The notes beneath the pieces are model-generated. The model worked only from the letters and a program-made list of their open reading frames with translations, was not told where the DNA came from and did no database searches. From contig JBKJMP010000268.1 of the NCBI GenBank assembly GCA_046596395.1, forward strand, positions 1 to 31,861: a stretch of DNA of 31,861 bases, written 5' to 3'. Every line of letters starts with the position of its first letter. Positions within the stretch are counted from its first letter, which is position 1. The stretch comes from Gemmatimonadaceae bacterium. Lineage in GTDB: Bacteria > Gemmatimonadota > Gemmatimonadetes > Gemmatimonadales > Gemmatimonadaceae. A program made the translations under genes and the position numbers. Below, piece by piece: positions 3,613-21,713 of the stretch.

Positions 3613-4242
3613 CTACCGAATCGTCGCCTTGATCACCGGCTTGAAGAGCAGCCCGTTCTGCGCGATGCTGTTCCCCCGCTGCACGAAGCTGTTGTCCACG
3701 TCGAAGTCCACGAGCGTCGTCGTCGTGTCGTTCGCGCGAACCACGAGTGCGGACTGTAACTTGATCTTGATCCCCGACCGCGCCGCGCTCGGGAACGACA
3801 CGCTCGGCGACGATGTGCTGGTGAGCACCGCGCCGTTCTTGAGCGTCACGCTCGACTTCGAGGGATCGATGATGAGGCGAAGCGACCGGTAGTCGCCCGC
3901 AGCGACGGTGCGTGCGCCGAGCGTCGTGAAGATGCCGTTGCGGAGCGCGAGCAGCTCGATGAGCGCGTTCGGCGTGGCAACCGTGGTCCATCCGCCGCTA
4001 GCGGAACTGTCCGTCGAGGTGGCGGTCGCCGCATCAGTCGAGTCGGAGTCCGCTGCCTTCGCATCCACCCGGACGACGAAGATGTCCACGCGCTTCACTG
4101 AATCGGACGAGAACGGCGCGTCGGTGAGTTGAATCTGCAGAGAGCCGGTGCCCTGGCTGGTGCTGCTATCGGAGCAGGCGGTGATGGCAACCGCGCCGAA
4201 GGCAGCGGCGAACAGGGTCGAACGCACGAGGTGACGCGACAT
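3613..4242 (-). CDS. DUF4382 domain lipoprotein
   Basis: Lipobox AITAC. Motifs LQIQLTDAP, IELLAL, YRSLRLII and TLVDFDVDNSF...FKPVIK are typical of DUF4382. AGGAGA RBS at about 4248-4253. Confidence 0.85.
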   Translation of the reverse strand: MSRHLVRSTLFAAAFGAVAITACSDSSTSQGTGSLQIQLTDAPFSSDSVKRVDIFVVRVDAKAADSDSTDAATATSTDSSASGGWTTVATPNALIELLALRNGIFTTLGARTVAAGDYRSLRLIIDPSKSSVTLKNGAVLTSTSSPSVSFPSAARSGIKIKLQSALVVRANDTTTTLVDFDVDNSFVQRGNSIAQNGLLFKPVIKATIR

Positions 4243-4310
4243 CAGAATCTCCTTGCATCGGGAATCGGACTGCTACTCGAGACGGTGCGACATCGCACTC
4301 GCTTCTGGAG

Positions 4311-4341
4311 ATAGGACTGTCATGATTCGTGCTCGCGTCAC
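4311..4341 (-). promoter_or_regulatory. Putative ECF-sigma promoter for the DUF4382 gene (GTGAC-N17-CAGTC)
   Basis: The minus strand reads GTGACGCGAGCACGAATCATGACAGTCCTAT, with the same spacing as three other copies. Confidence 0.6.
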
Positions 4342-4419
4342 CGACATTCTTACATGTGCGATGCGTCACAACGCGCGTGCGCGATGAGTCACGAGATCAT
4401 GGCCTCACGCGTGCGTTAT

Positions 4420-4449
4420 GTGACCAATGCCAGCAATCCAACAGTCAAT
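4420..4449 (+). promoter_or_regulatory. Putative autoregulatory ECF promoter (GTGAC-N17-CAGTC)
   Basis: GTGAC at 4420-4424, a 17-nt spacer, CAGTC at 4442-4446 and ATG at 4455. No RBS is evident, so the transcript may be leaderless. Confidence 0.6.
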
Positions 4450-4454
4450 CCAGC

Positions 4455-5012
4455 ATGGCCGAGCTGCACCATCAACCGGACGCCGTCGTCGTTGCCGCCG
4501 TCCTCGGCGGCGACACCTATGCGTACAGCGTGCTACTCTCGCGATACCGCGACGCGTACACGCGCTACGCCGTCCGCATGCTCGGCAACCGCGAGGATGC
4601 GGACGATGCGTTGCAGTCCACATTCATTCGTGCGTTTCGCAACCTCGCCAAATGCCAGGATCCGGCGCGGTTCGGTGCGTGGCTCTACCAGATTGCGATC
4701 AATGAGTGCAGGAGCCTCGGCGCGCGGCGCGGGAGGCGCGAGCTGCGCATGGTGCGGGACGATGCGGAGATGGAGCGAGCGCTTGGCATGACGCACGCCG
4801 ACCCCGCCGCCGACATGCGCGACGAGATCCAGCGCGCGCTGGACCAGCTCGACGTCGACCAGCGAGAAGCGTTCGTGCTGAAACACATCGAAGAGTTGAG
4901 CTACGACGAGATGGCGGCGATCACTGGCGTCGGTGTCTCTGCACTGAAGATGCGGGTCAAGCGGGCCTGCGATCACCTGCGGGAGTTGCTGAAGGAGGCG
5001 TACCATGAGTGA
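4455..5012 (+). CDS. ECF-subfamily sigma-70 RNA polymerase sigma factor
   Basis: Region 2 (DADDALQSTFIRAFRNL, FGAWLYQIAINECR) and region 4 (LDVDQREAFVLKHIEELSYDEMAAITGVGVSALKMRVKRA). The start is chosen at MAELHH. Confidence 0.92.
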   Translation: MAELHHQPDAVVVAAVLGGDTYAYSVLLSRYRDAYTRYAVRMLGNREDADDALQSTFIRAFRNLAKCQDPARFGAWLYQIAINECRSLGARRGRRELRMVRDDAEMERALGMTHADPAADMRDEIQRALDQLDVDQREAFVLKHIEELSYDEMAAITGVGVSALKMRVKRACDHLRELLKEAYHE

Positions 5013-5634
5013 CGGAGACGACGAGAAGGAGCGACGCTTCATCGAACGCATCGCGGGACCAATGCGCGCGCCGGAGCGGTTGCGTGACAGCTTCGAGGCG
5101 CGGGTGATGCTGGCCGCTCACGATGCCGTGGGCGCTGGCGAGCCGCGCGAGCCGGTGACGTCGCTCGCATGGTGGCGACGTCCGCGCACCGTCTCCGTGT
5201 CGCCGATGCGGGCGATGGCGATGGCGGCGAGCGTGCTCGTGGCTGTTCTACTCGCGGGTGCGGGCGTGGGCCGGCTCACGCACGATCAGCCGATGGCATC
5301 GCCGGCCATCGCGCTCGAGCGACGCGTGGACACCGTGCACGTCGTCCGGTTCATGCTCACCGACGCCCAGGCGACGTCGATCGTGCTCGTCGGCGACTTC
5401 AACGACTGGTCGAAGAGCGCCACGCCACTGACCCGGACGCCCAACGGCAAGGCATGGATCGCGACCGTCAACCTCCCCGCCGGGCGGCACGAGTATGCGT
5501 TTCTCGTGCGCGACGATGCCGGTGAGCACTGGGTGCCCGATCCCTTCGCCACCACCGTGCACGACGACTTCGGGACGGTCAGCTCGCTCGTGCACGTCGG
5601 GAGCGAGTCGCAGCGGACGTCGAGCTCCAGCTAG
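5005..5634 (+). CDS. Putative anti-sigma factor: N-terminal cytoplasmic segment, one TM helix, C-terminal CBM48 / isoamylase-early-set (AMPK-type glycogen-binding) domain
   Basis: 8-bp overlap with the sigma gene. TM segment AMAMAASVLVAVLLAGAGV. VRFMLT, SIVLVGDFNDW, WIATVNLPAGRHEYAFLV and WVPDP match the E-set/CBM48 pattern. Confidence 0.8.
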   Translation: MSDGDDEKERRFIERIAGPMRAPERLRDSFEARVMLAAHDAVGAGEPREPVTSLAWWRRPRTVSVSPMRAMAMAASVLVAVLLAGAGVGRLTHDQPMASPAIALERRVDTVHVVRFMLTDAQATSIVLVGDFNDWSKSATPLTRTPNGKAWIATVNLPAGRHEYAFLVRDDAGEHWVPDPFATTVHDDFGTVSSLVHVGSESQRTSSSS

Positions 5635-5640
5635 GCCACA

Positions 5641-6783
5641 TTGCGATCGGTCGTCGTACTCGCGCTCGTCGTCACCGCTGGTGCAACGCTCGCACCCGGC
5701 GCGCGTGCGCAGCGCGTCACGTCGTCGGTCGCCTTCACAGGCGCGAATGTCCGGTATGCGGACTCCGTCGGCGTCTCCGCGCTGACGTTGACGCCGAGCG
5801 TGCAGTTGGATCGCGACTTCTCGACGCTCGGAGCGTCGGTGTCGTACTCGCAGCTCGCGTCGGGCGGATGGACGATGCAGGGCGCCGGCAGCGGCTCCCT
5901 CTTCACGTCGCCGGTGCGCGGGCTGACCGGTGAGCTCTCGGCGTTGCTCGGCGGGAGCACCCACGGCGACGGAACGCGCACCGGGCAGTCGATCGCCTCG
6001 GCGCGCGCGCACGTCATTACGCCAGCGCGCGGCGCGTGGATCGGCGCGGGCGCCGGCGGCACCTGGGACGGCGACCGCTGGCGCACGCTGCTCCAGGGCG
6101 AGGCAGCGGCATGGACGCGCATCGGCGAGCGCGCGACCGCGCTCGCGACAGTCACGCCCGTCATGGTGGACGACTCCAGTCGCTACACGGATGCGGAGGT
6201 CGCCGCGCACTGGGATGGCAGCACGTTGGAGGTCGGCGCCTCTGTCGGGGCGCGGAGCGGCAGGCCACGTGGCGCACTGTCGGGCGCGGGCGCGTGGGGT
6301 GGCGTGAGCGTCGCCGCATGGCTCAGGTCCGGGATTGCGGTCGTCGGCAGTGCGGGCGTGTATCCCGCCGACCTCACGCAGGGCTATCCCGACGGACGCT
6401 ACCTGTCGCTCGGCGTGCGACTCGGGCAACGGGCCCGGCGTCCCGTCGTCGAACCGGTGCCGCTCGTCGCGCGAGAGCGTGATGTCGCCGCTCTCGCGGG
6501 TGTGGAGCGATTCACGACCACTGCCGCTGCGGGCGGCCGGCGCACGATACGCGTGCTTGCTCCAGACGCGCGCACTGTGGAGGTGAACGGCGACTTCACG
6601 CGCTGGACGCCCATTGGCCTCACGAAGCTCGCTGGTGGATGGTGGTCAGCCACCCTCCCCCTCGCGACGGGGACATACCAGATGAATGTGAGGACGGACG
6701 GTGGCGCGTGGATCGTTCCGCCGGGACTCCCGCTGCTGAAGGATGAATTCGGGGGCAGCGTGGGCCTGCTCGTCATACCGTAA
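5641..6783 (+). CDS. Exported beta-barrel-like protein with C-terminal CBM48-like domain
   Basis: TTG start and signal peptide. About 250 aa of alternating Gly/aromatic amphipathic strands, then VEVNGDFTRW, WWSATLPLATGTYQMNVRTDGGAWIVPPG and DEFGGSVGLLVIP. Confidence 0.75.
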   Translation: MRSVVVLALVVTAGATLAPGARAQRVTSSVAFTGANVRYADSVGVSALTLTPSVQLDRDFSTLGASVSYSQLASGGWTMQGAGSGSLFTSPVRGLTGELSALLGGSTHGDGTRTGQSIASARAHVITPARGAWIGAGAGGTWDGDRWRTLLQGEAAAWTRIGERATALATVTPVMVDDSSRYTDAEVAAHWDGSTLEVGASVGARSGRPRGALSGAGAWGGVSVAAWLRSGIAVVGSAGVYPADLTQGYPDGRYLSLGVRLGQRARRPVVEPVPLVARERDVAALAGVERFTTTAAAGGRRTIRVLAPDARTVEVNGDFTRWTPIGLTKLAGGWWSATLPLATGTYQMNVRTDGGAWIVPPGLPLLKDEFGGSVGLLVIP

Positions 6784-7356
6784 GGCTGTGACGCGCGCGC
6801 GCAACGCAGCAGTCCAATAGATGAAGGCAATTCATTGCAGTTCCCCGAGGGACCCATCATGCGATACACACATCTGCGTTCTGCGCTCGCACTCGCGAGC
6901 TTGTTGATTGGATCGGCAGCATCCCAGGCATCCGCACAGACGCCGGCTGAGGATCCATCCGCTCGGCTGCGGCAGGTGTTGCCGGCGGATGTCGCGGCGC
7001 GCGTGCTTGCACGCATCGCCGACGCGCGCGCGCGTGACCTGCCCGCGGCAGCACTCGAGAATCGCGCGCTGAAGTTCGCCGCGAAGGGAGTAGCGCCGGC
7101 CGACATCGAGAAGTCGGTCACCGAGCAGGGCGTCCGCATGCTCAATGCTCGGACTGCGCTTACACAGGGTCGCGCGGGACGTCCTGCGCACGACGAGATC
7201 GAGGCAGGTGCCGAGGCGCTCCGGAAGGGTGTCAGTGGCGCTGGCGTTGCGGCGCTCGCGCACAGTGCTCCGTCCGGACGTTCGCTCGCCGTACCGTTGT
7301 TCGTGGTGGGCAGCTTGGTTGATCGGGGGCTGCCGTCCGATGCTGCGCTGTCGCGC
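6634..7356 (+). repeat. Copy 1 of a ~720-bp diverged direct repeat (copy 2 at 20700-21418)
   Basis: Colinear by manual alignment; 26 mismatches counted in the first 150 nt (about 83% identity). Confidence 0.9.
6788..6818 (+). promoter_or_regulatory. Putative ECF promoter (GTGAC-N17-CAGTC) upstream of the 6859 gene
   Basis: GTGAC at 6788-6792 and CAGTC at 6810-6814. It is conserved in the paralogous copy at 20854-20884. Confidence 0.6.
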
Positions 7357-7596
7357 GTGCAGGAGCGCCTTCAGGCGCGGGTGTCCGACGCGGATCTGCA
7401 GGGATTGCCGGCGGGTGTCAGTGCGGGTGAAGTGCGCAAACCGGCGCAGACCGGCCGCGACGTCGCGGCCACGAAGCGCCCAGCGGACGCTGGAGCGGGT
7501 CCAGACCGACGTGGGAATGGCCCGCCCGCTGGCGTACCGGCAAATGGTGGCGCGGGCGCGCGTCCGACCGGGGCCGGCAAAGGCCGTAAGCCCTGA
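6859..7596 (+). CDS. Secreted alpha-helical hypothetical protein with Gly/Pro-rich basic tail
   Basis: GAGG RBS at 6847-6850 and a signal peptide ending ASA-Q. A diverged second copy at 20923 has mostly synonymous changes, which supports the reading frame. Confidence 0.8.
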   Translation: MRYTHLRSALALASLLIGSAASQASAQTPAEDPSARLRQVLPADVAARVLARIADARARDLPAAALENRALKFAAKGVAPADIEKSVTEQGVRMLNARTALTQGRAGRPAHDEIEAGAEALRKGVSGAGVAALAHSAPSGRSLAVPLFVVGSLVDRGLPSDAALSRVQERLQARVSDADLQGLPAGVSAGEVRKPAQTGRDVAATKRPADAGAGPDRRGNGPPAGVPANGGAGARPTGAGKGRKP

Positions 7597-7605
7597 CGAG
7601 CGGGA

Positions 7606-9186
7606 TCACTCCTTCGACAGCGAGAACGTGAACGGCATCTCGAGTAACTGCCGTACCTTCTTCCCACCAACCTGCGCCGGCTGAAAGCGCATCGCTGACA
7701 CAGAGGTCTCCACCGCCTGCGTGAACAGCGCGTGATCCGACCGGAGCACCTTGAGGCTCCCCGGCATGATCTCGCCGTTCACGTCGATGACGAACTGCGC
7801 GACGACTTCGCCCTCCACCTTCGCCCGCCGTAGCTCGTCCGGATAGCGCATCAGCCCAGTGCCCGGGATCTGGCGCGCCTCGCTATTCGGAGGTACGTCG
7901 CTGGACGGCTTGATCACTGAGGCAGGGCGCGCCGGTGACGGCGGACCGCCCAACGAGAACGTGAACGGCTGCTGCACCAGCTGCCGCACTCTGACCCCAC
8001 CGACCTCAGCGGGCGAAAAGCGCATGTTCGGCAACGCGGCCTCGACCGCTGCGGTGAAGTCGCCGTGGTTGGACTGCAACACCTTGAACGTCCCGGGCTC
8101 GATCGCGCCGGTCGCATCGACCACGAACTGCGCGAGCACCTCGCCCTGCACGCTCGCGCTGCGCAGGGCGTCGGGATAGCGCACCCTCCCCGTTCCCGCC
8201 ACCTGCTGCGCCTGTTTCTCCACTTGATACTCGAAGTACGGCTGCTTCGCGACGGTGGGACTCTCTGGCGCGATAATCGGGCGCGGCGCGGCGACGTCGG
8301 CAATACGCGAGTTGCACGCGGCGGCGCCCCCGACGACCGTCGCCGCAATGGCGACGACGATCCTCGTTCGACGACCGCTGGCAGAGATGGGACGCATGGC
8401 GGCAATCCTCCGTTCGAGATGTGAGCGAGACGCAGCGAGCATCGGCGCAAACGGCGTCATGCCCTGCCGCTGAGAGATGAGCAGGAGAAGCTTTCCGTAC
8501 TGCGCCGTGTTACCCTCGGTGGCGAGGACGCGTGCGTCGCAATCCACTTCGAGTGCGAGACGCGCGCGACGCACGATCCACCAGAGCGGCACGTTCCACG
8601 GCACGAGCGCGAGCGCAACGGCTGATCCGATCACGACCCACGGATCACGCGCGCGGCAGTGCTCCTCCTCGTGTCGCAGCACGAGGCGCCGCAACGGCGC
8701 CGCAAGCTCGAGCATCGCCGAAGGCAGCAGCACCCTCGGCGCCACCACACCGACGACTGCGGGACCGACGTCCGCATTCACGAGCACCGGCACGCCATCG
8801 ACGACGCGCGGTTCGCTCGCGCGCCGGATGCGTGCGAGTTGTGCGTAGGCGCGCGCGAGGCGAATCACGAGCACAACGCTCAACATCGCCCACATCACCA
8901 GCAATAGGGTGTCGAGTTGCGCGGACCACGCGAATGTCGCCGGGATGCCGCCCGGCACGGCCTGAATCGACGGCAGCGCCACGACCGCTGATTGCGCCGA
9001 GCTGTCCGGAAGCAGGCGTCGCGCGATCGGAGCGATCACCGGCCACGTTGCTCCGGCCGCCAGGGCCACGAGCCACGGCGCACGCGTCGGACGGCGCACG
9101 GCGCGCAACGCCACTTCCGCGCACAATGCGGTCACCCCGAGCAGGGCGGTGAACACCAGCGCGGAGAACATCCACGCGGCGATCAT
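7606..9186 (-). CDS. BlaR1/MecR1-type M56 metallopeptidase fused to two TonB C-terminal domains
   Basis: TM N-terminus, GPAVVG...PRVLLP, zinc motif HEEEH, PWNVPLWW and EVDCD. Two TonB_C-like repeats follow (YPDALR..VQGEVLAQFVVD / YPDELR..VEGEVVAQFVID), each ending in PFTFSL. Confidence 0.88.
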   Translation of the reverse strand: MIAAWMFSALVFTALLGVTALCAEVALRAVRRPTRAPWLVALAAGATWPVIAPIARRLLPDSSAQSAVVALPSIQAVPGGIPATFAWSAQLDTLLLVMWAMLSVVLVIRLARAYAQLARIRRASEPRVVDGVPVLVNADVGPAVVGVVAPRVLLPSAMLELAAPLRRLVLRHEEEHCRARDPWVVIGSAVALALVPWNVPLWWIVRRARLALEVDCDARVLATEGNTAQYGKLLLLISQRQGMTPFAPMLAASRSHLERRIAAMRPISASGRRTRIVVAIAATVVGGAAACNSRIADVAAPRPIIAPESPTVAKQPYFEYQVEKQAQQVAGTGRVRYPDALRSASVQGEVLAQFVVDATGAIEPGTFKVLQSNHGDFTAAVEAALPNMRFSPAEVGGVRVRQLVQQPFTFSLGGPPSPARPASVIKPSSDVPPNSEARQIPGTGLMRYPDELRRAKVEGEVVAQFVIDVNGEIMPGSLKVLRSDHALFTQAVETSVSAMRFQPAQVGGKKVRQLLEMPFTFSLSKE

Positions 9187-9563
9187 GACGCGCCCTCGGC
9201 ATCAGCCGCATCCGTCAGCTGCTTCGCGAGCCGCTGCAACTCCTCGGCAGTGAGGTCGTGATCGTCCACGAGTTGCGCGAGCAGCGCTTCCGGGGAACCG
9301 AGGAAGAGGGTGTCGATGAGGCGACGCACGGCGCGGCGTTGTGCGGCGCGCTGCTTCACCTTCGGGAAGTAGCGATGCGCGCGCCCTTCCTCGGCGCGTC
9401 GCACGAATCCCTTCGCCTCGAGATTGCGAAGGATGGTGAGCACCGTCGTGTACGCGAGCGGCGTCCCGAGCGTCGCCTGAACTTCGGTGACGGTCCCCGA
9501 GCCCTGCTGCCAGAGCACGGTCATGATGTCGAGCTCGCGCTCGCCGAGTGATGCAGTATCCAC
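9183..9563 (-). CDS. BlaI/MecI/CopY-family repressor
   Basis: LGERELDIMTVLW, LAYTTVLTILRNLEAKGFVRR, GRAHRY. GTG start with GGAG RBS; 4-bp overlap with the M56 gene. Confidence 0.93.
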   Translation of the reverse strand: MDTASLGERELDIMTVLWQQGSGTVTEVQATLGTPLAYTTVLTILRNLEAKGFVRRAEEGRAHRYFPKVKQRAAQRRAVRRLIDTLFLGSPEALLAQLVDDHDLTAEELQRLAKQLTDAADAEGAS

Positions 9564-15210: not shown

Positions 15211-15313
15211 GCACATATTGGCGACCGGCGGCCCGCAGTGACCCGTACGTCCCCCACCGGGTGTGCCAGAACAAGCAGAAAACCTGATCTCCTTCCCGCA
15301 CCAGGAGTCGGCT

Positions 15314-18300
15314 ATGACGGCATTCCCGTGTCGTTGCTTCCCAACGCCCGCGCGACCATGGACTTGTCTGGCCCTGGCGCTTCTCGCCAGCGCAGGCGAC
15401 CTCGCCGCCCAGACACCCACGGCGACGATCGGTGGGCGCGTCACCGGTGAGAACGGTCAGCCGATCGCCGGCGCGCAGGTCCGTCTCGTCGGCACCGGCC
15501 TGGGAACGCTGACCGCAGACAACGGCCGCTACACCATCGTCAACGTGCCCGTGGCGCAATACCGGATACGAGCGCAGATGCTCGGCCATCGCCCAGTGGA
15601 GCGTCCATTGACGCTCGGTGCTGGCCAGACGGCGACGGAGGACTTCGCGCTCAGGAAGCAGGTGCTCGAGCTCGACGCCCTCGTCGTCACCGGAACGGCC
15701 GGTGCGGCGCGCCAGCGCGAAGTGGGGAATGCGGTGTCGCAGATCGACATGTCGAAGGTACAGGAGCCGCCGCAGAACATTGGACAGCTGCTGCAGGGGC
15801 GCGCGCCGGGCATGACCGTGATGTCCAGCTCCGCCGGCGCCGGCAGCGGCTCCATGATCCGTCTTCGCGGCAATGTCAGCGTCGCCATGAGCAACCAGCC
15901 GCTCATCTACGTGGACGGCGTGCGGCTGCGCAGCGACGGCTACCAGCGCAACGTGCCGCCCACCGGGTCCGATCTGCGGAGCGGCAATGACATCGCGAGC
16001 CCCCTGAACGACATCAACCCGAACGACATTGAGCGAATCGAAATCATCAAGGGCGCGGCTGCGGCAACGCTGTACGGCACGGAAGCGGCTGCCGGCGTGA
16101 TTCAGATCTTCACCAAGACCGGACGCGCGGGCAAGCCGCAGTGGTCCATGCAGGTGGATGGCGGCTTCGCGCGCGCGCTTCCGTTCGGACCCGAGCCGAC
16201 CACGGCGCCCGCGGGAGACTCCATTCCGAAGCTGTACCGCGACAGCTTTCCCGACCGGTTCGCCGGCCTGCCCGATCGCGGCGTGTCGCGCGCGGGCGGG
16301 ACGTCGGCATACCTCTTCATCGACCCGTGGCTACGCAAGGGTGTGCAACGTCGCATCTCACTCTCCGTGGGTGGCGGCGGCGAGGCACTGCGCTACTTCG
16401 TGTCGGGCACGGGCAGCAATGAAGACGGCGTGCTGCCGAACGACAACGAGAAGCGGAAAGTGATTCGCGGAAACTTCTCGTTCTCACCACTCGCAAACCT
16501 GATCTTCAACTGGAATACCTCGTACACGAAGGACCTCATCTCGAACACGGCCGCCGGCAACAACGCGCATGGTCTCACACTGAATGCGTTCCGGCGCGAT
16601 CGCAACTACGCGTCGAACGACCGGCCCGAAGTCGTCGGATTGCTGCTCAACCAGCAGCTCACGAGCGACATCGACCACCTCATCACGGGCGGCACGATCA
16701 ACTGGAGTCCGACGGCGAACATCACGAATCGCTTCACGGTGGGCTACGATCTCGCGCAGATCGCGAACCGCAATCTGCGACCGTTCGGCTTCGTGTCGGC
16801 GCCGGGTGGGATCATCTCCAACCGCGAGAACTCGTACCAGAATCTCACCTTCGACTATGCCGGCAGCTACGCGCGGCAACTCGCGAGCAGCCTCAAGTCC
16901 ACGTGGTCGTGGGGCGGGCAGGCCGTCACGACGGAGAACCGTGAGACGTCGGCGTACGGGCAGGATTTCCCCGGGCCGGGCAATCCCACCGTGACCAGTG
17001 CCGGCACCACGCTCGGCTTCGAAGAGCGCTCGCGCATCGTCAACGCGGGTCTCTTTGGCCAGGCGATCTTCGATGCCAAGGACAAGTACTTCCTCACGCT
17101 TGGCGCGCGCGTCGATGGCAACAGCGCGTTCGGCTCGAAGTTCGGGTTGCAAACGTATCCGAAAGCGAGCGTGTCGTGGGTCGCGTCGGAAGAGAGCTTT
17201 TGGCCGTCGTGGAATCCCGAGATGAAGTTCCGCGCCGCGCTTGGTCAGTCGGGTCGCGCGCCCGGCGCATTCGACGCGATTCGCACGTGGGAAAATCCGC
17301 CGAGTGGATGGGGCGGACTGCCGGCGTTCTTCCCGCGCAGCGTCGGGAATCCGGAGTTGGGTCCGGAGCGCACCACGGAGCTGGAACTGGGCTTCGACGG
17401 CGCGCTGTTCGGTGACCGCATGAGCACGTCCGTCACGTGGTACAATCGCAACATCGACAGGGCGCTCTTCAACACCCGCCAGATTCCGTCGCTCGGGTTC
17501 CTCAACTCGCAACTGCAGAACGTCGGAGCCATGTCGAGCAAGGGACTGGAAGCGTCGCTGACCACCGTCGTGCTGCGCCGGCGACGCTTCGAGTGGTCCG
17601 TCGGCGGCTCGATCTACACCAACGACACGAAGGTCGACACGCTCGGCGACGCGGCGGACTTTTCGATCGGCAACTTCGGCTGGATCATGAAGGGACAAGC
17701 GATCCCGATGATCCGCACCGACTTCTGCCTCGCGAATCCGAGCGAAAAGGCGGCACCGATCGTCATCTCGCCGACGAAAGCCAACCCGAACGCGTGCAAC
17801 TACGGTCCAAACCTTCCGCCGCACACGTACGGCGTGAACACGGAGCTCAAGCTCCCGTACGACATCCGCTTCAACGCGCGTGGGGAGTACATGGGCGGCC
17901 ACTACATGTACGATGGCGCGGCATGGAATGCCGTGACTCGCTCGGTACGGTGGCCGGGATGCTACAGCTTCTACGCGCTTCAGGAGACGGGCCGCATCGC
18001 GGAAGCCACCGCGTTGCAGACGTCGCGGTGCACGGTGTCGCTCGCGAAGTCGGATTACTTCGTCTATCCGGCGAACTTCTTCAAGCTTCGCAACCTTTCC
18101 GTCGCCGTTCCCATCGCGACGCGCTACCTCGCGGGCGCCACCTCGGCGTACCTCACGCTCTCGGGAAACAATATCTACAAGTGGGTGAACAAGGACTTCC
18201 CAGTGTTTGATCCGGAAACGGGCAACAACGGTGGTTTCGATGCGCAGGTGCGCTCCATTCTCGAGCACGTGCCGCCGCCGGCAACGTACATGGCGTCGCT

Positions 18301-18316
18301 ACGCGTGACCTTCTGA
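15314..18316 (+). CDS. SusC/RagA-family TonB-linked outer-membrane transporter
   Basis: AGGAG RBS at 15303-15307. N-terminal carboxypeptidase-regulatory-like domain (IGGRVTGENGQPI), VVTGT, plug (PLIYVDGV; DINPNDIERIEIIKGAAAATLYG) and terminal LRVTF. Confidence 0.93.
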   Translation: MTAFPCRCFPTPARPWTCLALALLASAGDLAAQTPTATIGGRVTGENGQPIAGAQVRLVGTGLGTLTADNGRYTIVNVPVAQYRIRAQMLGHRPVERPLTLGAGQTATEDFALRKQVLELDALVVTGTAGAARQREVGNAVSQIDMSKVQEPPQNIGQLLQGRAPGMTVMSSSAGAGSGSMIRLRGNVSVAMSNQPLIYVDGVRLRSDGYQRNVPPTGSDLRSGNDIASPLNDINPNDIERIEIIKGAAAATLYGTEAAAGVIQIFTKTGRAGKPQWSMQVDGGFARALPFGPEPTTAPAGDSIPKLYRDSFPDRFAGLPDRGVSRAGGTSAYLFIDPWLRKGVQRRISLSVGGGGEALRYFVSGTGSNEDGVLPNDNEKRKVIRGNFSFSPLANLIFNWNTSYTKDLISNTAAGNNAHGLTLNAFRRDRNYASNDRPEVVGLLLNQQLTSDIDHLITGGTINWSPTANITNRFTVGYDLAQIANRNLRPFGFVSAPGGIISNRENSYQNLTFDYAGSYARQLASSLKSTWSWGGQAVTTENRETSAYGQDFPGPGNPTVTSAGTTLGFEERSRIVNAGLFGQAIFDAKDKYFLTLGARVDGNSAFGSKFGLQTYPKASVSWVASEESFWPSWNPEMKFRAALGQSGRAPGAFDAIRTWENPPSGWGGLPAFFPRSVGNPELGPERTTELELGFDGALFGDRMSTSVTWYNRNIDRALFNTRQIPSLGFLNSQLQNVGAMSSKGLEASLTTVVLRRRRFEWSVGGSIYTNDTKVDTLGDAADFSIGNFGWIMKGQAIPMIRTDFCLANPSEKAAPIVISPTKANPNACNYGPNLPPHTYGVNTELKLPYDIRFNARGEYMGGHYMYDGAAWNAVTRSVRWPGCYSFYALQETGRIAEATALQTSRCTVSLAKSDYFVYPANFFKLRNLSVAVPIATRYLAGATSAYLTLSGNNIYKWVNKDFPVFDPETGNNGGFDAQVRSILEHVPPPATYMASLRVTF

Positions 18317-18323
18317 GGATCCC

Positions 18324-19667
18324 ATGACAATTCAACGGAAGCGCCTCATTCAGAGGCCGATCGTGAAGGCTCTCCGCAGCTACGCGTTGGTCCTCGTCCT
18401 GCTCGGCCTGTACACGGCTTGCAATACGGAGGTCGTCAACCAGGGGCGATTCGAGGATGCATACCTCAACGACCGAAACGCCGAGGTGGCCCTGGTCAAC
18501 GGCGCGGCACGGGCAATTTCGCAGGGCGTGAACTGGATCAGCTACACGGGCGCCGCCATCACGCGTGAAATCCATCCCGCTGGATCGACCGGAAGCTTCG
18601 GCATCACGACACTCTGGCAGAACGGCGAGCTCCGTGTCGACGACGGCGATCTGGATACCCACTGGGAGCAGGCGCAGCGCGGCCGCTGGATCGCCGAGGA
18701 GGCCGTCCGGCGAATCGAAGCGGCGCAGCCACCTGTCGCTGGCGAGCTGCAAACCCTTGCCGCCTACAACAACGTGCGGCAGCTCGCGTACATCTACGCC
18801 GGGTACGCGAATCGCATCCTGGGCGAGAACATGTGTGAGTCGACGATCGACGGGGGGCCCGCCGGACCGAACACGGTGTTCTTCCAGCGCGCCGAGAGTC
18901 TCTTCACCAAGGCGATTGGCGTCACGGGTGGTACGGCCGCGACCATGGCGGCGCAGCTGACGCGAGCCTATGCCGGCCGAGCCGCCGTGCGCGTCCATCT
19001 CGGGAACTGGACCGGAGCTGTCGCCGATGCCGCACAGGTGCCCATCGGCTTCGTCTTCAACATGCCGTATTTCAACATCGGTGACGACGCACAGCGCAAT
19101 CGCATTTTCTGGGCGTCAGGCAATACGAGAGAAAGCGGGTCGGCGTATCGAGCGCACACGCAGTGGAGCACCTGGTACTACAACTACAGGGTGGCGACCA
19201 GCGATCCACGTGTTCCGATCACGGTCACGACACTCCTGGGCGATGCCGCCATTGAATGCTGTGGCAGGGTGCCGTGGTATCCGGAAGCAAAGCACTCCGC
19301 ATCAGCGTCGCCCATTCGACTCTCGAGCGGGCGTGAGATGCGGCTGATCGAGGCCGAGGCCAAGTTGCGCAACAGTGATCTCGCGGGAGCGATGACATCC
19401 ATCAATCTCGTTCGCACCAACGCGGCAGCGACTGCGATCACCGCCGTCGACATCACCGATGGCTGGCGGTTGCTCAAGCGCGAGCGCGGGATCGAGCTGT
19501 GGCTGGAAGCGCGACGACTGGGCGACATGCGTCGCTGGAAGGCGGGCAACACGCCTGGCGCGCTCGACCCACTCGAGCAGCCAGGTACGGGGTCACATAT
19601 GTCCAAGCAGGACCTCTGCTTCCCCATCGCGGTCTCGGAGCGTCAGACGAACCCCAACTTACGCTAA
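18324..19667 (+). CDS. SusD/RagB-family lipoprotein
   Basis: Lipobox YTAC, 7 bp downstream of susC. EMRLIEAEA and ERGIELWLEARRLGDMRRW are SusD C-terminal motifs. Confidence 0.88.
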   Translation: MTIQRKRLIQRPIVKALRSYALVLVLLGLYTACNTEVVNQGRFEDAYLNDRNAEVALVNGAARAISQGVNWISYTGAAITREIHPAGSTGSFGITTLWQNGELRVDDGDLDTHWEQAQRGRWIAEEAVRRIEAAQPPVAGELQTLAAYNNVRQLAYIYAGYANRILGENMCESTIDGGPAGPNTVFFQRAESLFTKAIGVTGGTAATMAAQLTRAYAGRAAVRVHLGNWTGAVADAAQVPIGFVFNMPYFNIGDDAQRNRIFWASGNTRESGSAYRAHTQWSTWYYNYRVATSDPRVPITVTTLLGDAAIECCGRVPWYPEAKHSASASPIRLSSGREMRLIEAEAKLRNSDLAGAMTSINLVRTNAAATAITAVDITDGWRLLKRERGIELWLEARRLGDMRRWKAGNTPGALDPLEQPGTGSHMSKQDLCFPIAVSERQTNPNLR

Positions 19668-20193: not shown

Positions 20194-20699
20194 TGACGGA
20201 TTGGGCATCGTACGACGTGACCCTCGCCGCAATGATGTAGCCGAATGCGCAAAAACATCGGCTGCAGGTACGAGGTCCCCAGCGTCTGGGCACACTGCTG
20301 GCTCACGGACTCGCGGTGGCCACCAGAGGGCGGCACGTGGAAGAAGATGCGCTGCTCCGGATACGGCGAGCAGGCAGGCAAGATCACGGATGGACTGCTT
20401 CATGGACGGCTCCTGTCGCACGGCGCTGCCCTCATTCTACGCAGTTCGCTCTGCGGCGCCATGACCGCTCGTGTCCTCGATCCCGCCAGGCGTAAGCTAC
20501 GGTCGATCTGGCCAGCCGCGGCCGCGGTAAAGATCGCGCATGCCGCCTTGTTCGTGGTGGGGTGCAGCGGCTCGCGGACCCCGAACAGTCGGAGGCAGCT
20601 GTTAATGAACAGTTCCACCCAGCTCTCCATGTCGAGCACGCTCGCCGGGACCGGGAAAGCACGGCCTCGACTAACGCGCGGGTTAATGACGAGCCGTCG

Positions 20700-20849
20700 G
20701 GTGGATGGTGGTCGGTCACCCTGCCCGTCGCCGCGGGCGCGCATCAGATGAATGTGAGGATGGATGGCGGCGCGTGGATCGTTCCGCCGGGACTGGCGTC
20801 GCTCAAGGATGAATTCGGGGGCATCGTCGGCCTGCTCGTTGCTCCGTGA
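20700..20849 (+). pseudogene. 3' fragment of a paralog of the barrel-CBM48 gene
   Basis: GGWWSVTLPVAAGAHQMNVRMDGGAWIVPPGLASLKDEFGGIVGLLVAP* aligns to 6634-6783. The upstream part is missing. Confidence 0.85.
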
Positions 20850-20853
20850 ATCT

Positions 20854-20884
20854 CTGACGCGCGCGCGCAACGCAACAGTCCAAT
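20854..20884 (+). promoter_or_regulatory. Retained copy of the ECF promoter motif (CTGAC-N17-CAGTC)
   Basis: CTGACGCGCGCGCGCAACGCAACAGTCCAAT has 2 mismatches to 6788-6818. Confidence 0.55.
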
Positions 20885-20922
20885 AGATGACGGCATCAGG
20901 GCAGTTGCCCGAGGGATCCATC

Positions 20923-21418
20923 ATGCGTTACACACATGTGCGTTCTGCGCTCGCATTCGCGAGCGCGTTGATTGGAACAGCAACATCTCGAGTCTCCGCA
21001 CAAACGCCGGCCGAGGATCCCTCTGCTCGGCTCCGTCAGGTGCTGCCGGCCGACGTTGCCGCACGTGTGCGCGCGCGCATCGCCGACGCGCGCGCTCGTG
21101 ATCTCCCCGCCGCGGCGCTCGAGAACCGCGCGCTGAAGTCGCCGCGAAGGGCGTCGCGCCCGCCGACATCGAGAAGTCCATCGCCGAGCAGGGCGTCCGC
21201 ATGCTGGATGCGAAGACCGCGTAGCAGAAGGGGCGCGCGGGGCGTCCGGCGCACGATGAGATCGAGTCGGCACCGAGGCGATCCGGAAGGGCGTCAGTGG
21301 CGCTGCCGTTGCGGCGCTCGCGCGGAGTGCGCCGTCGGTACGTTCGCTCGCCGTGCCGTTGTTCGTGGTGGGCAGCCTGATGGATCGTGGGCTGCCGTCC
21401 GATGCCGCGCTTTCGCGC
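20923..21418 (+). pseudogene. Frameshifted, truncated paralog of the 6859 gene
   Basis: Relative to copy 1: a 1-bp deletion near 21139 (AAGTTC>AAGTC), an in-frame TAG at 21222-21224, a second 1-bp deletion near 21270, and loss of similarity after 21418. Confidence 0.88.
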
Positions 21419-21713
21419 TGGCGATCCTGTATCGGCTCCGCTTCGAACTCGGGACAGCGCGGGCGGCGTGTCTCCAAGAATGCCGAAAGTCGAGGCCGAG
21501 CGGTCTCGGTTGCAGCTGCATGCCCGAAGCAAGCGCATCATTAATAGTGCAAGTTGTTGTGGAACTGTGCTTTAGCGAAATCCTGCGAACCCTTTCTCGC
21601 GCTTGATAGTGCTCCTGCCTACAAGACTGTGGTGCGTGTGCCACAGTGACTACTCAGGGGTTCCTTGCCATCGAGGTGCGCCGCGTTCCCGCCCGCGCCC
21701 AGCACGCCTGGCT

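Follow-up and report, generated by a model that had tools for sequence, protein, structure and literature searches.

The DNA analysed in this study, a 31,861-nucleotide stretch from a Gemmatimonadaceae bacterium (contig JBKJMP010000268.1; its whole length is referred to here as the window), contained between positions 3613 and 7596 a compact cassette of five genes. These encoded an extracytoplasmic function (ECF) sigma factor, a single-pass membrane protein with a periplasmic CBM48-fold domain, an outer-membrane beta-barrel protein ending in a second domain of that fold, a secreted helical protein, and a DUF4382 lipoprotein transcribed divergently from the rest. We suggest, with moderate confidence, that this module acts as an autoregulated ECF sigma/anti-sigma envelope switch, and comparative sequence analysis confirmed that the cassette is a real and strongly conserved gene set of the Gemmatimonadota. 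Among bacterial signaling systems, ECF sigma/anti-sigma pairs form a major class for which most inputs are unknown, and the Gemmatimonadota are abundant soil bacteria whose regulation is almost unstudied. The cassette was conserved and apparently self-contained, and its promoter, operon, and partner set could be read from comparative sequence. The stretch itself was present in soil DNA metagenomes only.

The gene set and its products

The five genes stood where a first-pass annotation of this DNA had placed them, as was confirmed from the list of open reading frames (ORFs), and its description of an ECF module was borne out as genuine by the conservation of the gene set across Gemmatimonadota relatives. 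In the locus survey, one genome per species was scanned for relatives of the barrel protein, which gave 431 stretches, and the best 80 of these loci were used; the presence of a neighboring gene was counted only in loci with room for that gene. All of the best 80 loci belonged to the Gemmatimonadota. Beside the barrel gene, the anti-sigma gene was found in 70/70 loci, an orthologous sigma gene in 68/70, the helical-protein gene in 65/65, and the DUF4382 gene in 25/40. The co-occurrence of all five genes, which the annotation had put forward for checking, held for the four genes that were always found together in relatives, but not for the DUF4382 gene, which was present in only about 60% of the loci with room for it. 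The genes flanking the module showed no conservation in the neighborhoods compared. In a phylum sample of 301 genomes, including one unpublished genome (G156) that underlies none of the claims made here, the barrel-CBM48 profile was matched in 184, many of the matches being partial or paralogous.

The sigma factor gene (forward strand, 4455–5012, within a longer ORF at 4329–5012) encoded 185 residues containing only sigma-2 and sigma-4 domains (Sigma70_r2, E-value 8.5e-15; Sigma70_r4_2, E-value 1.2e-14). A score of 85 bits against TIGR02937, for which the cut-off is 42.9, placed the protein in the ECF class (group 4), and no equivalog model reached its cut-off. The ATG at 4455 was taken as the conserved sigma start because homologues were 179–192 residues long and the promoter motif described below lay inside the longer ORF. 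The nearest solved structures were AlgU, SigE, RpoE, CnrH, and SigW. In 72 of the 80 loci, the gene immediately preceding the anti-sigma gene encoded an orthologous sigma factor (50–78% identity).

The following gene (forward strand, 5005–5634) overlapped the stop of the sigma gene by 8 bp at its start (ATGAGTGA) and was preceded by the Shine-Dalgarno sequence GAAGGAGG. Its product contained a single hydrophobic segment at residues ~70–90, preceded by a conserved cytoplasmic stretch ~45 residues long, and residues 114–201 matched AMPK1_CBM (39.5 bits, cut-off 26.8) and CBM_48 (32.8 bits, cut-off 22.4). The Pfam and TIGR matches, the gene overlap, and the one hydrophobic segment together agreed with the initial description of an ECF sigma gene overlapping the gene for a single-transmembrane CBM48 protein. 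Relatives of this protein numbered 236, were about 200 residues long, and carried CBM48 in 120/120 of those listed; the named relatives of this protein and of the barrel protein were Gemmatimonadaceae. Protein clusters combining CBM48 with zf-HC2, an anti-sigma zinc-finger family, occurred in other phyla, which indicates that CBM48 is a recurrent sensor domain of anti-sigma factors. The 5005 protein is very probably an anti-sigma factor, because of its translational overlap with the sigma gene, its universal pairing with the orthologous sigma factor, its conserved cytoplasmic segment followed by one transmembrane helix, and the existence of those zf-HC2 and CBM48 clusters. The predicted binding of the sigma factor by this protein rests on synteny and topology.

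The third gene (forward strand, 5641–6783) began 6 nucleotides after the anti-sigma gene with no promoter motif of its own, and it is predicted to be co-transcribed with that gene. The 380-residue product was modelled with AlphaFold2 from 49 homologues (predicted local distance difference test, pLDDT, 83.6). The model consisted of a signal helix, 14 beta-strands at residues 25–262 with very short loops on both faces, a disordered linker at 267–285, and a beta-sandwich at 290–380. The annotated exported beta-strand protein with a second CBM48-like end was accordingly modelled as an outer-membrane barrel joined to a CBM48 sandwich, and residues 300–357 matched CBM_48 (24.7 bits, cut-off 22.4), while AMPK1_CBM scored 24.9 bits, under its cut-off of 26.8. 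In Foldseek searches, the nearest folds to the barrel part were 14-strand porins, with template modelling (TM) scores by target of 0.57–0.69 for OmpG and 0.46–0.48 for CymA at ~10% identity; autotransporter and inverse-autotransporter barrels were among the weaker matches. The tail was nearest to the carbohydrate-binding module (CBM) of AMPK beta2 (4yee; TM score by target 0.8). No Plug or TonB_dep_Rec match was found by Pfam, in keeping with the earlier statement that the module lacks a TonB receptor; its outer-membrane partner is instead predicted to be a plug-less 14-strand barrel. Relatives of the barrel protein numbered 160 among 8000 candidates scored. An even number of strands would leave both ends of the barrel in the periplasm, so that in this model a periplasmic location, like that of the anti-sigma domain, is the most likely one for the second CBM48 domain.

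The two CBM48-fold domains were compared at the sugar site of AMPK beta1, the residues of which we take to be Trp100, Lys126, Trp133, Leu146, and Asn150 (1z0m structure). The anti-sigma domain was aligned to the AMPK beta CBMs (sequence E-value 2.6e-9), and the positions were read onto both family alignments. The equivalents of Trp100 and Trp133 were invariant in both families, as W135 and W176 in the anti-sigma factor and W322 and W357 in the barrel protein, so that the check for sugar-binding aromatics proposed with the annotation found both Trp platforms kept in both domains. The equivalent of Lys126 was a near-invariant Ala, that of Asn150 was Ser, and that of Leu146 was Phe. Because the Trp pair was invariant but the hydrogen-bonding residues were replaced, a ligand-binding surface was probably retained by these predicted domains, while specificity could not be read from the residues; alpha-glucan sensing is possible. 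A complex prediction for anti-sigma residues 100–209 with barrel-protein residues 283–380 returned a score of 0.01 against a mark of 0.32, a value that speaks neither for nor against contact between the two domains. As first annotated, no glycoside hydrolase occurred in the locus, with no such domain among the large ORFs of the window. No glycoside hydrolase gene was found near the module in the window or in three other Pfam-labelled neighborhoods, the one exception being a seemingly unrelated GH3 gene at a distance of 5 kb in one of them.

The fourth gene (forward strand, 6859–7596, with a longer ORF start at 6835) encoded a protein that matched no Pfam family. Its AlphaFold2 model showed a signal peptide, an all-alpha repeat core at residues 30–185 with pLDDT >95, and a disordered Gly/Pro/basic tail. 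Searches for relatives (Foldseek against PDB, VIA-align wide, AFDB clusters, and two Atlas searches) returned only designed repeat proteins, models labelled DUF4197 or HEAT, and the protein's own family, which comprised 1901 cluster representatives. No other protein accompanied the CBM48 anti-sigma factor as constantly as the helical protein, also in paralogous modules of the same genome (see below), whereas the barrel was optional. This pattern suits a regulatory partner in the position of RseB, and a role as co-regulator is thus more probable for the helical protein than one as output alone.

The DUF4382 lipoprotein gene (reverse strand, 3613–4242) is a candidate local target of the sigma factor. 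Its product matched Pfam DUF4382 with an E-value of 5.6e-24 (85.4 bits, cut-off 25) and began with a signal peptide that terminated in the lipobox ITAC; no solved relative was found. Orthologues beside the module shared 45–68% identity and were encoded either divergently upstream, as in the window, or co-directionally after the helical-protein gene. The form in the window was short (209 residues); most relatives added a CarboxypepD_reg-like domain (~295 residues; e.g., L014:2838-3725) or DUF4397 (~415 residues; e.g., L013:3635-4888).

The genome to which the window belongs, a metagenome-assembled genome that is 72% complete, contained at least three further CBM48 anti-sigma modules, i.e., at least four in all. 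One (C417:857-2569) consisted of genes for a sigma factor, an anti-sigma factor, and a helical protein, of which the second and third overlapped, and its helical product aligned to the helical family with an hhalign probability of 99.1. Another (C41:1-2070) had the gene order anti-sigma, helical, barrel, and a third (C179:2814-3918) was a sigma and anti-sigma pair. The window itself held a decayed partial second copy of the module (forward strand, 20690–21430), retaining the last ~50 barrel codons, a promoter site at 20854–20880 (a CTGAC variant), and the first ~170 helical codons. Aligned 1-kb stretches of this copy and the module were 85% identical, and the copy carried two 1-bp deletions and an in-frame TAG. 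The occurrence of several such modules in a single genome suggests that, in the Gemmatimonadota, the CBM48 fold serves generally as a periplasmic sensor. Separately, some metagenomic gene calls joined sigma, CBM48 anti-sigma, and helical parts, or CBM48 and helical parts, in one frame: P0330, P0349, and P0376 (586–645 residues), and P0317 (L090:2-1066), which lay at the edge of a 1.3-kb contig. These fusion-like ORFs are either real fusions, in which case they would support a functional link, or possible artefacts of assembly or gene calling.

Promoter-like motif and candidate transcription units

The motif STGAC-N17-CAGTC occurred at four sites in the window against 0.21 expected. These lay before the sigma gene, before the divergent DUF4382 gene, before the helical-protein gene, and in the decayed module copy. 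The putative autoregulatory site of the sigma operon (forward strand, 4420–4446; TGTGAC-N18-AGTC) ended 8 nucleotides before the ATG at 4455. The promoter-like site of the DUF4382 gene (reverse strand, 4315–4341; GTGAC-N17-CAGTC) lay 72 nucleotides upstream of that gene, and the same motif was found before DUF4382 genes of relatives. The site of the helical-protein gene (forward strand, 6788–6814) was likewise conserved in relatives.

In relatives, TGAC-N17/18-AGTC was sought within 230 nucleotides upstream of each gene. It was found before the sigma gene in 61/69 cases, before the helical-protein gene in 59/78, and before the DUF4382 gene in 29/34, and before neither the barrel gene (0/76) nor the anti-sigma gene (0/72). 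The base preceding TGAC, which was unconstrained in the search, was G at 137/137 sites, and the base before that was T in 80%. Two of the loci, L003 and L089, had exactly two motif sites each, at the expected places, one of them before the helical-protein gene. The distance from the end of AGTC to the sigma start codon was 8 nucleotides in most loci (~47/60), including the window, L003, and L089. Because AGTC ends so close to the start codon, the sigma mRNA would be leaderless, which implies a sigma operon that is both leaderless and autoregulated, as far as can be judged from its sequence. We read this arrangement as three putative sigma-dependent transcription units, namely sigma/anti-sigma/barrel, the helical-protein gene, and the DUF4382 gene.

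The 72%-complete genome was also scanned as a whole. The loose motif occurred at 60 sites against ~90 by a rough base-composition estimate of chance, and GTGAC-N18-AGTC at 16 sites against ~30 by a similarly rough chance estimate. Outside the window, no site stood in promoter position before an exported protein in this genome, and the scan yielded no convincing further member of the regulon. In eight related loci (L011, L018, L022, L031, L053, L055, L066, and L086), a gene for a 156-residue prepilin-type protein stood beside the module with TGTGAC-N18-AGTC ahead of it. The encoded protein (e.g., L018:2909-3376, reverse strand) had a GFTxIE N-terminus and was pseudopilin-like; no close homologue of it was found in the incomplete genome of the window. 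The gene may belong to the regulon as an additional member in one sub-clade.

Two neighboring systems in the window were observed in addition. A BlaI-like repressor gene followed by a gene for a BlaR1 M56 peptidase lay at 7606–9563 (reverse strand), and the C-terminus of the peptidase carried two TonB_C domains in place of a penicillin-binding sensor. Further along, a SusC-like TonB-dependent receptor (CarboxypepD_reg, Plug, and barrel) followed by a SusD-family protein was encoded at 15263–19667 (forward strand), with no glycoside hydrolase adjoining.

Proposed mechanism and rival readings

In the mechanism that we propose for the envelope switch, the 5005 protein would hold the sigma factor at the inner membrane in the resting state by means of its short N-terminal part in the cytoplasm, with its periplasmic CBM48-fold domain serving as the input domain. 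The barrel would suspend the second CBM48 domain in the periplasm on a tether of about 20 residues, and could thereby link the sensor to an arriving ligand or to the condition of the outer membrane. The helical protein would most likely bind the periplasmic domain of the anti-sigma factor as an RseB-like co-regulator, providing feedback. An envelope signal would then lead to release of the sigma factor, presumably through proteolysis of the anti-sigma factor; that signal could be a perturbation of the outer membrane or else a glycan, of the alpha type or another, held by the invariant Trp pair. Once free, the sigma factor would transcribe from TGTGAC-N18-AGTC promoters, expressing its own leaderless operon, the helical-protein gene, and the DUF4382 lipoprotein gene.

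Several observations weigh against this mechanism. Residues 1–100 of the 5005 protein, together with 42 N-termini of its family, had no Pfam match and fell outside the ASDI and zf-HC2 families. The family alignment contained no HxxxCxxC or Cys/His motif, and the sole hint obtained with the N-terminal profile against PDB was RseA, which was sub-threshold (E-value 0.22). That the helical protein acts like RseB is argued by analogy, and no informative neighbor of its fold emerged from the structure searches. We infer both the binding of sigma by anti-sigma and that of the helical protein by CBM48, and we likewise infer that TGTGAC-N18-AGTC is a promoter motif; no RNA run is listed for the stretch. 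A close orthologue of the barrel gene was absent from two genomes of the same genus, which indicated that the four-gene form is patchy.

The signal itself invites a more specific reading, in which maltodextrin, glycogen, or starch fragments, perhaps entering through the barrel, would bind both CBM48 domains and cause sigma release. Such an alpha-glucan sensor, the main reading of the first-pass annotation, we consider possible though doubtful. CBM48 folds normally grip starch or glycogen, and the matches here exceeded Pfam cut-offs, the Trp100 and Trp133 equivalents were invariant in both families, the modelled CBM superposed on the AMPK beta2 CBM that was solved with cyclodextrin, and the best fold matches of the barrel included the 14-strand sugar channels OmpG and CymA. 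That last likeness is topological, however, at ~10% identity, and the replacement of Lys126 by a near-invariant Ala and of Asn150 by Ser argues against an alpha-glucan. Furthermore, no alpha-glucan enzyme or transporter was encoded in the window or in the other neighborhoods examined, and the detectable regulon consisted of envelope proteins of unknown function rather than catabolic genes. The presence of at least four modules in one 72%-complete genome also suits a generic sensor fold better than a single sugar. The domains could alternatively touch one another, so that a change in contact between the tethered CBM48 of the barrel and the periplasmic CBM48 of the anti-sigma factor would be the signal, much as in FecA and FecR but without TonB. 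This protein-protein relay appears unlikely. In its favor, the two genes adjoin in nearly all relatives and are predicted to form one transcript, the even-strand barrel and the membrane topology would place both domains in the periplasm, and the tether should be flexible. On the other side, three-gene modules do without the barrel, and pairs of invariant Trp residues, presumably exposed, more often mark a ligand site. A further reading is a TonB-independent glycan relay across the envelope, in which the 14-strand barrel would act as a channel that lets in a glycan chain, and the chain would be held by the CBM48 domains of both the barrel and the anti-sigma factor. The bridge so formed between the two membranes would release the sigma factor, with the helical protein modulating; we judge this version distinctly improbable.

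Two further alternatives would change the part played by individual proteins. If the linker threaded back through the barrel, as it does in inverse autotransporters, the CBM48 domain would be a cell-surface glycan-binding adhesin, and the sigma module would do no more than regulate it. Such surface display would suit the order of parts, with the barrel at the N-terminus followed by the disordered linker and a folded C-terminal domain, and also the autotransporter and inverse-autotransporter barrels among the weaker fold matches, yet the best matches were 14-strand porins rather than 12-strand type V barrels, there is one small passenger domain, and neither a LysM nor a periplasmic N-terminal domain was present. 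We therefore give this explanation very little credence. It is similarly hard to credit that the 5005 protein is no more than a periplasmic protein, anchored in the membrane and transcribed with the sigma gene, while the sigma factor is controlled otherwise. The N-terminus, with neither an anti-sigma family match nor a zinc motif, speaks for that view; against it stand the 8-bp translational overlap with the sigma gene, the pairing of the protein with an orthologous sigma factor in 70/70 loci with room, the conserved segment of ~45 residues ahead of the single transmembrane helix, and the analogous zf-HC2 and CBM48 proteins known in other phyla.

Once the ligand is identified, it should become clear whether CBM48 has been put to a use other than alpha-glucan binding, and a function could be given to two large families, those of the helical partner and of DUF4382. 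If the glycan relay were true, it would represent new polymer sensing in diderm bacteria and a new role for CBM48.

Comparison with known systems

The first-pass annotation knew of no characterized example of such a module. That statement stood insofar as no paper on the cassette was found: searches of open-access literature gave none linking an anti-sigma factor with a CBM48 or glycogen-binding domain, and none treating the ECF systems of the Gemmatimonadota. In addition, the text of an ECF-classification paper (PMC7826278) named no CBM48 or Gemmatimonadetes group. It did not stand for CBM-bearing anti-sigma factors in general, as it had overlooked the precedent of RsgI/SigI. RsgI of Clostridium thermocellum is a membrane anti-sigma factor with an extracytoplasmic carbohydrate-binding sensor (PMC10328401, PMC6582324, PMC4711584). 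The candidate anti-sigma factor resembles it in being a membrane protein with a carbohydrate-binding module as its predicted sensor. Unlike in that system, the sigma factor here is of the ECF type, and Pfam detected neither the RsgI N-terminal domain nor its autoproteolytic periplasmic domain. The host is diderm, which places the sensor in the periplasm; the CBM belongs to family 48 rather than 3, 42, or PA14; and no glycan-degrading regulon was evident.

The envelope-monitoring logic is that of RpoE-RseA-RseB in E. coli, AlgU-MucA-MucB in P. aeruginosa, and SigW-RsiW in B. subtilis, with which the cassette shares a putatively autoregulated ECF sigma factor co-transcribed with a single-pass anti-sigma factor, and a periplasmic partner. 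It differs from those systems in that the periplasmic domain is a CBM48 beta-sandwich and a barrel gene lies inside the operon. The cytoplasmic part is also shorter, with no ASD or zf-HC2 match, and the putative promoter is TGTGAC-N18-AGTC. Compared with RseB and MucB, the partner here is an all-helical repeat protein outside the MucB_RseB family, and the likeness is one of operon position only.

An outer-membrane barrel encoded with an ECF sigma/anti-sigma pair, with a periplasmic domain that could contact the anti-sigma factor, is likewise found in FecA-FecR-FecI and in the SusC-like/anti-sigma systems of Bacteroides. In the FecIRA type, the TonB-dependent transducer consists of a plug, a 22-strand barrel, and an N-terminal signaling domain, and the anti-sigma factor has a FecR domain. 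The barrel of the present cassette has 14 strands in the model, with no plug, TonB box, or N-terminal signaling domain, and no FecR match was obtained. Its 14 strands are shared with the monomeric porins OmpG and CymA, but the modelled protein has an extra C-terminal periplasmic domain, very short loops, and ~10% identity to them, so that the likeness is one of fold only. Both CBM48 domains share the fold of the AMPK beta CBM (1z0m, 4yee) and keep both sugar-stacking Trp residues. In the cassette they are joined to a membrane anchor in one protein and to an outer-membrane barrel in the other, in place of a kinase scaffold or a GH13 enzyme. On present evidence, which supports an ECF envelope-signaling module with CBM48 domains at both membranes, the cassette is a variant of a familiar signaling scheme and not a new principle.

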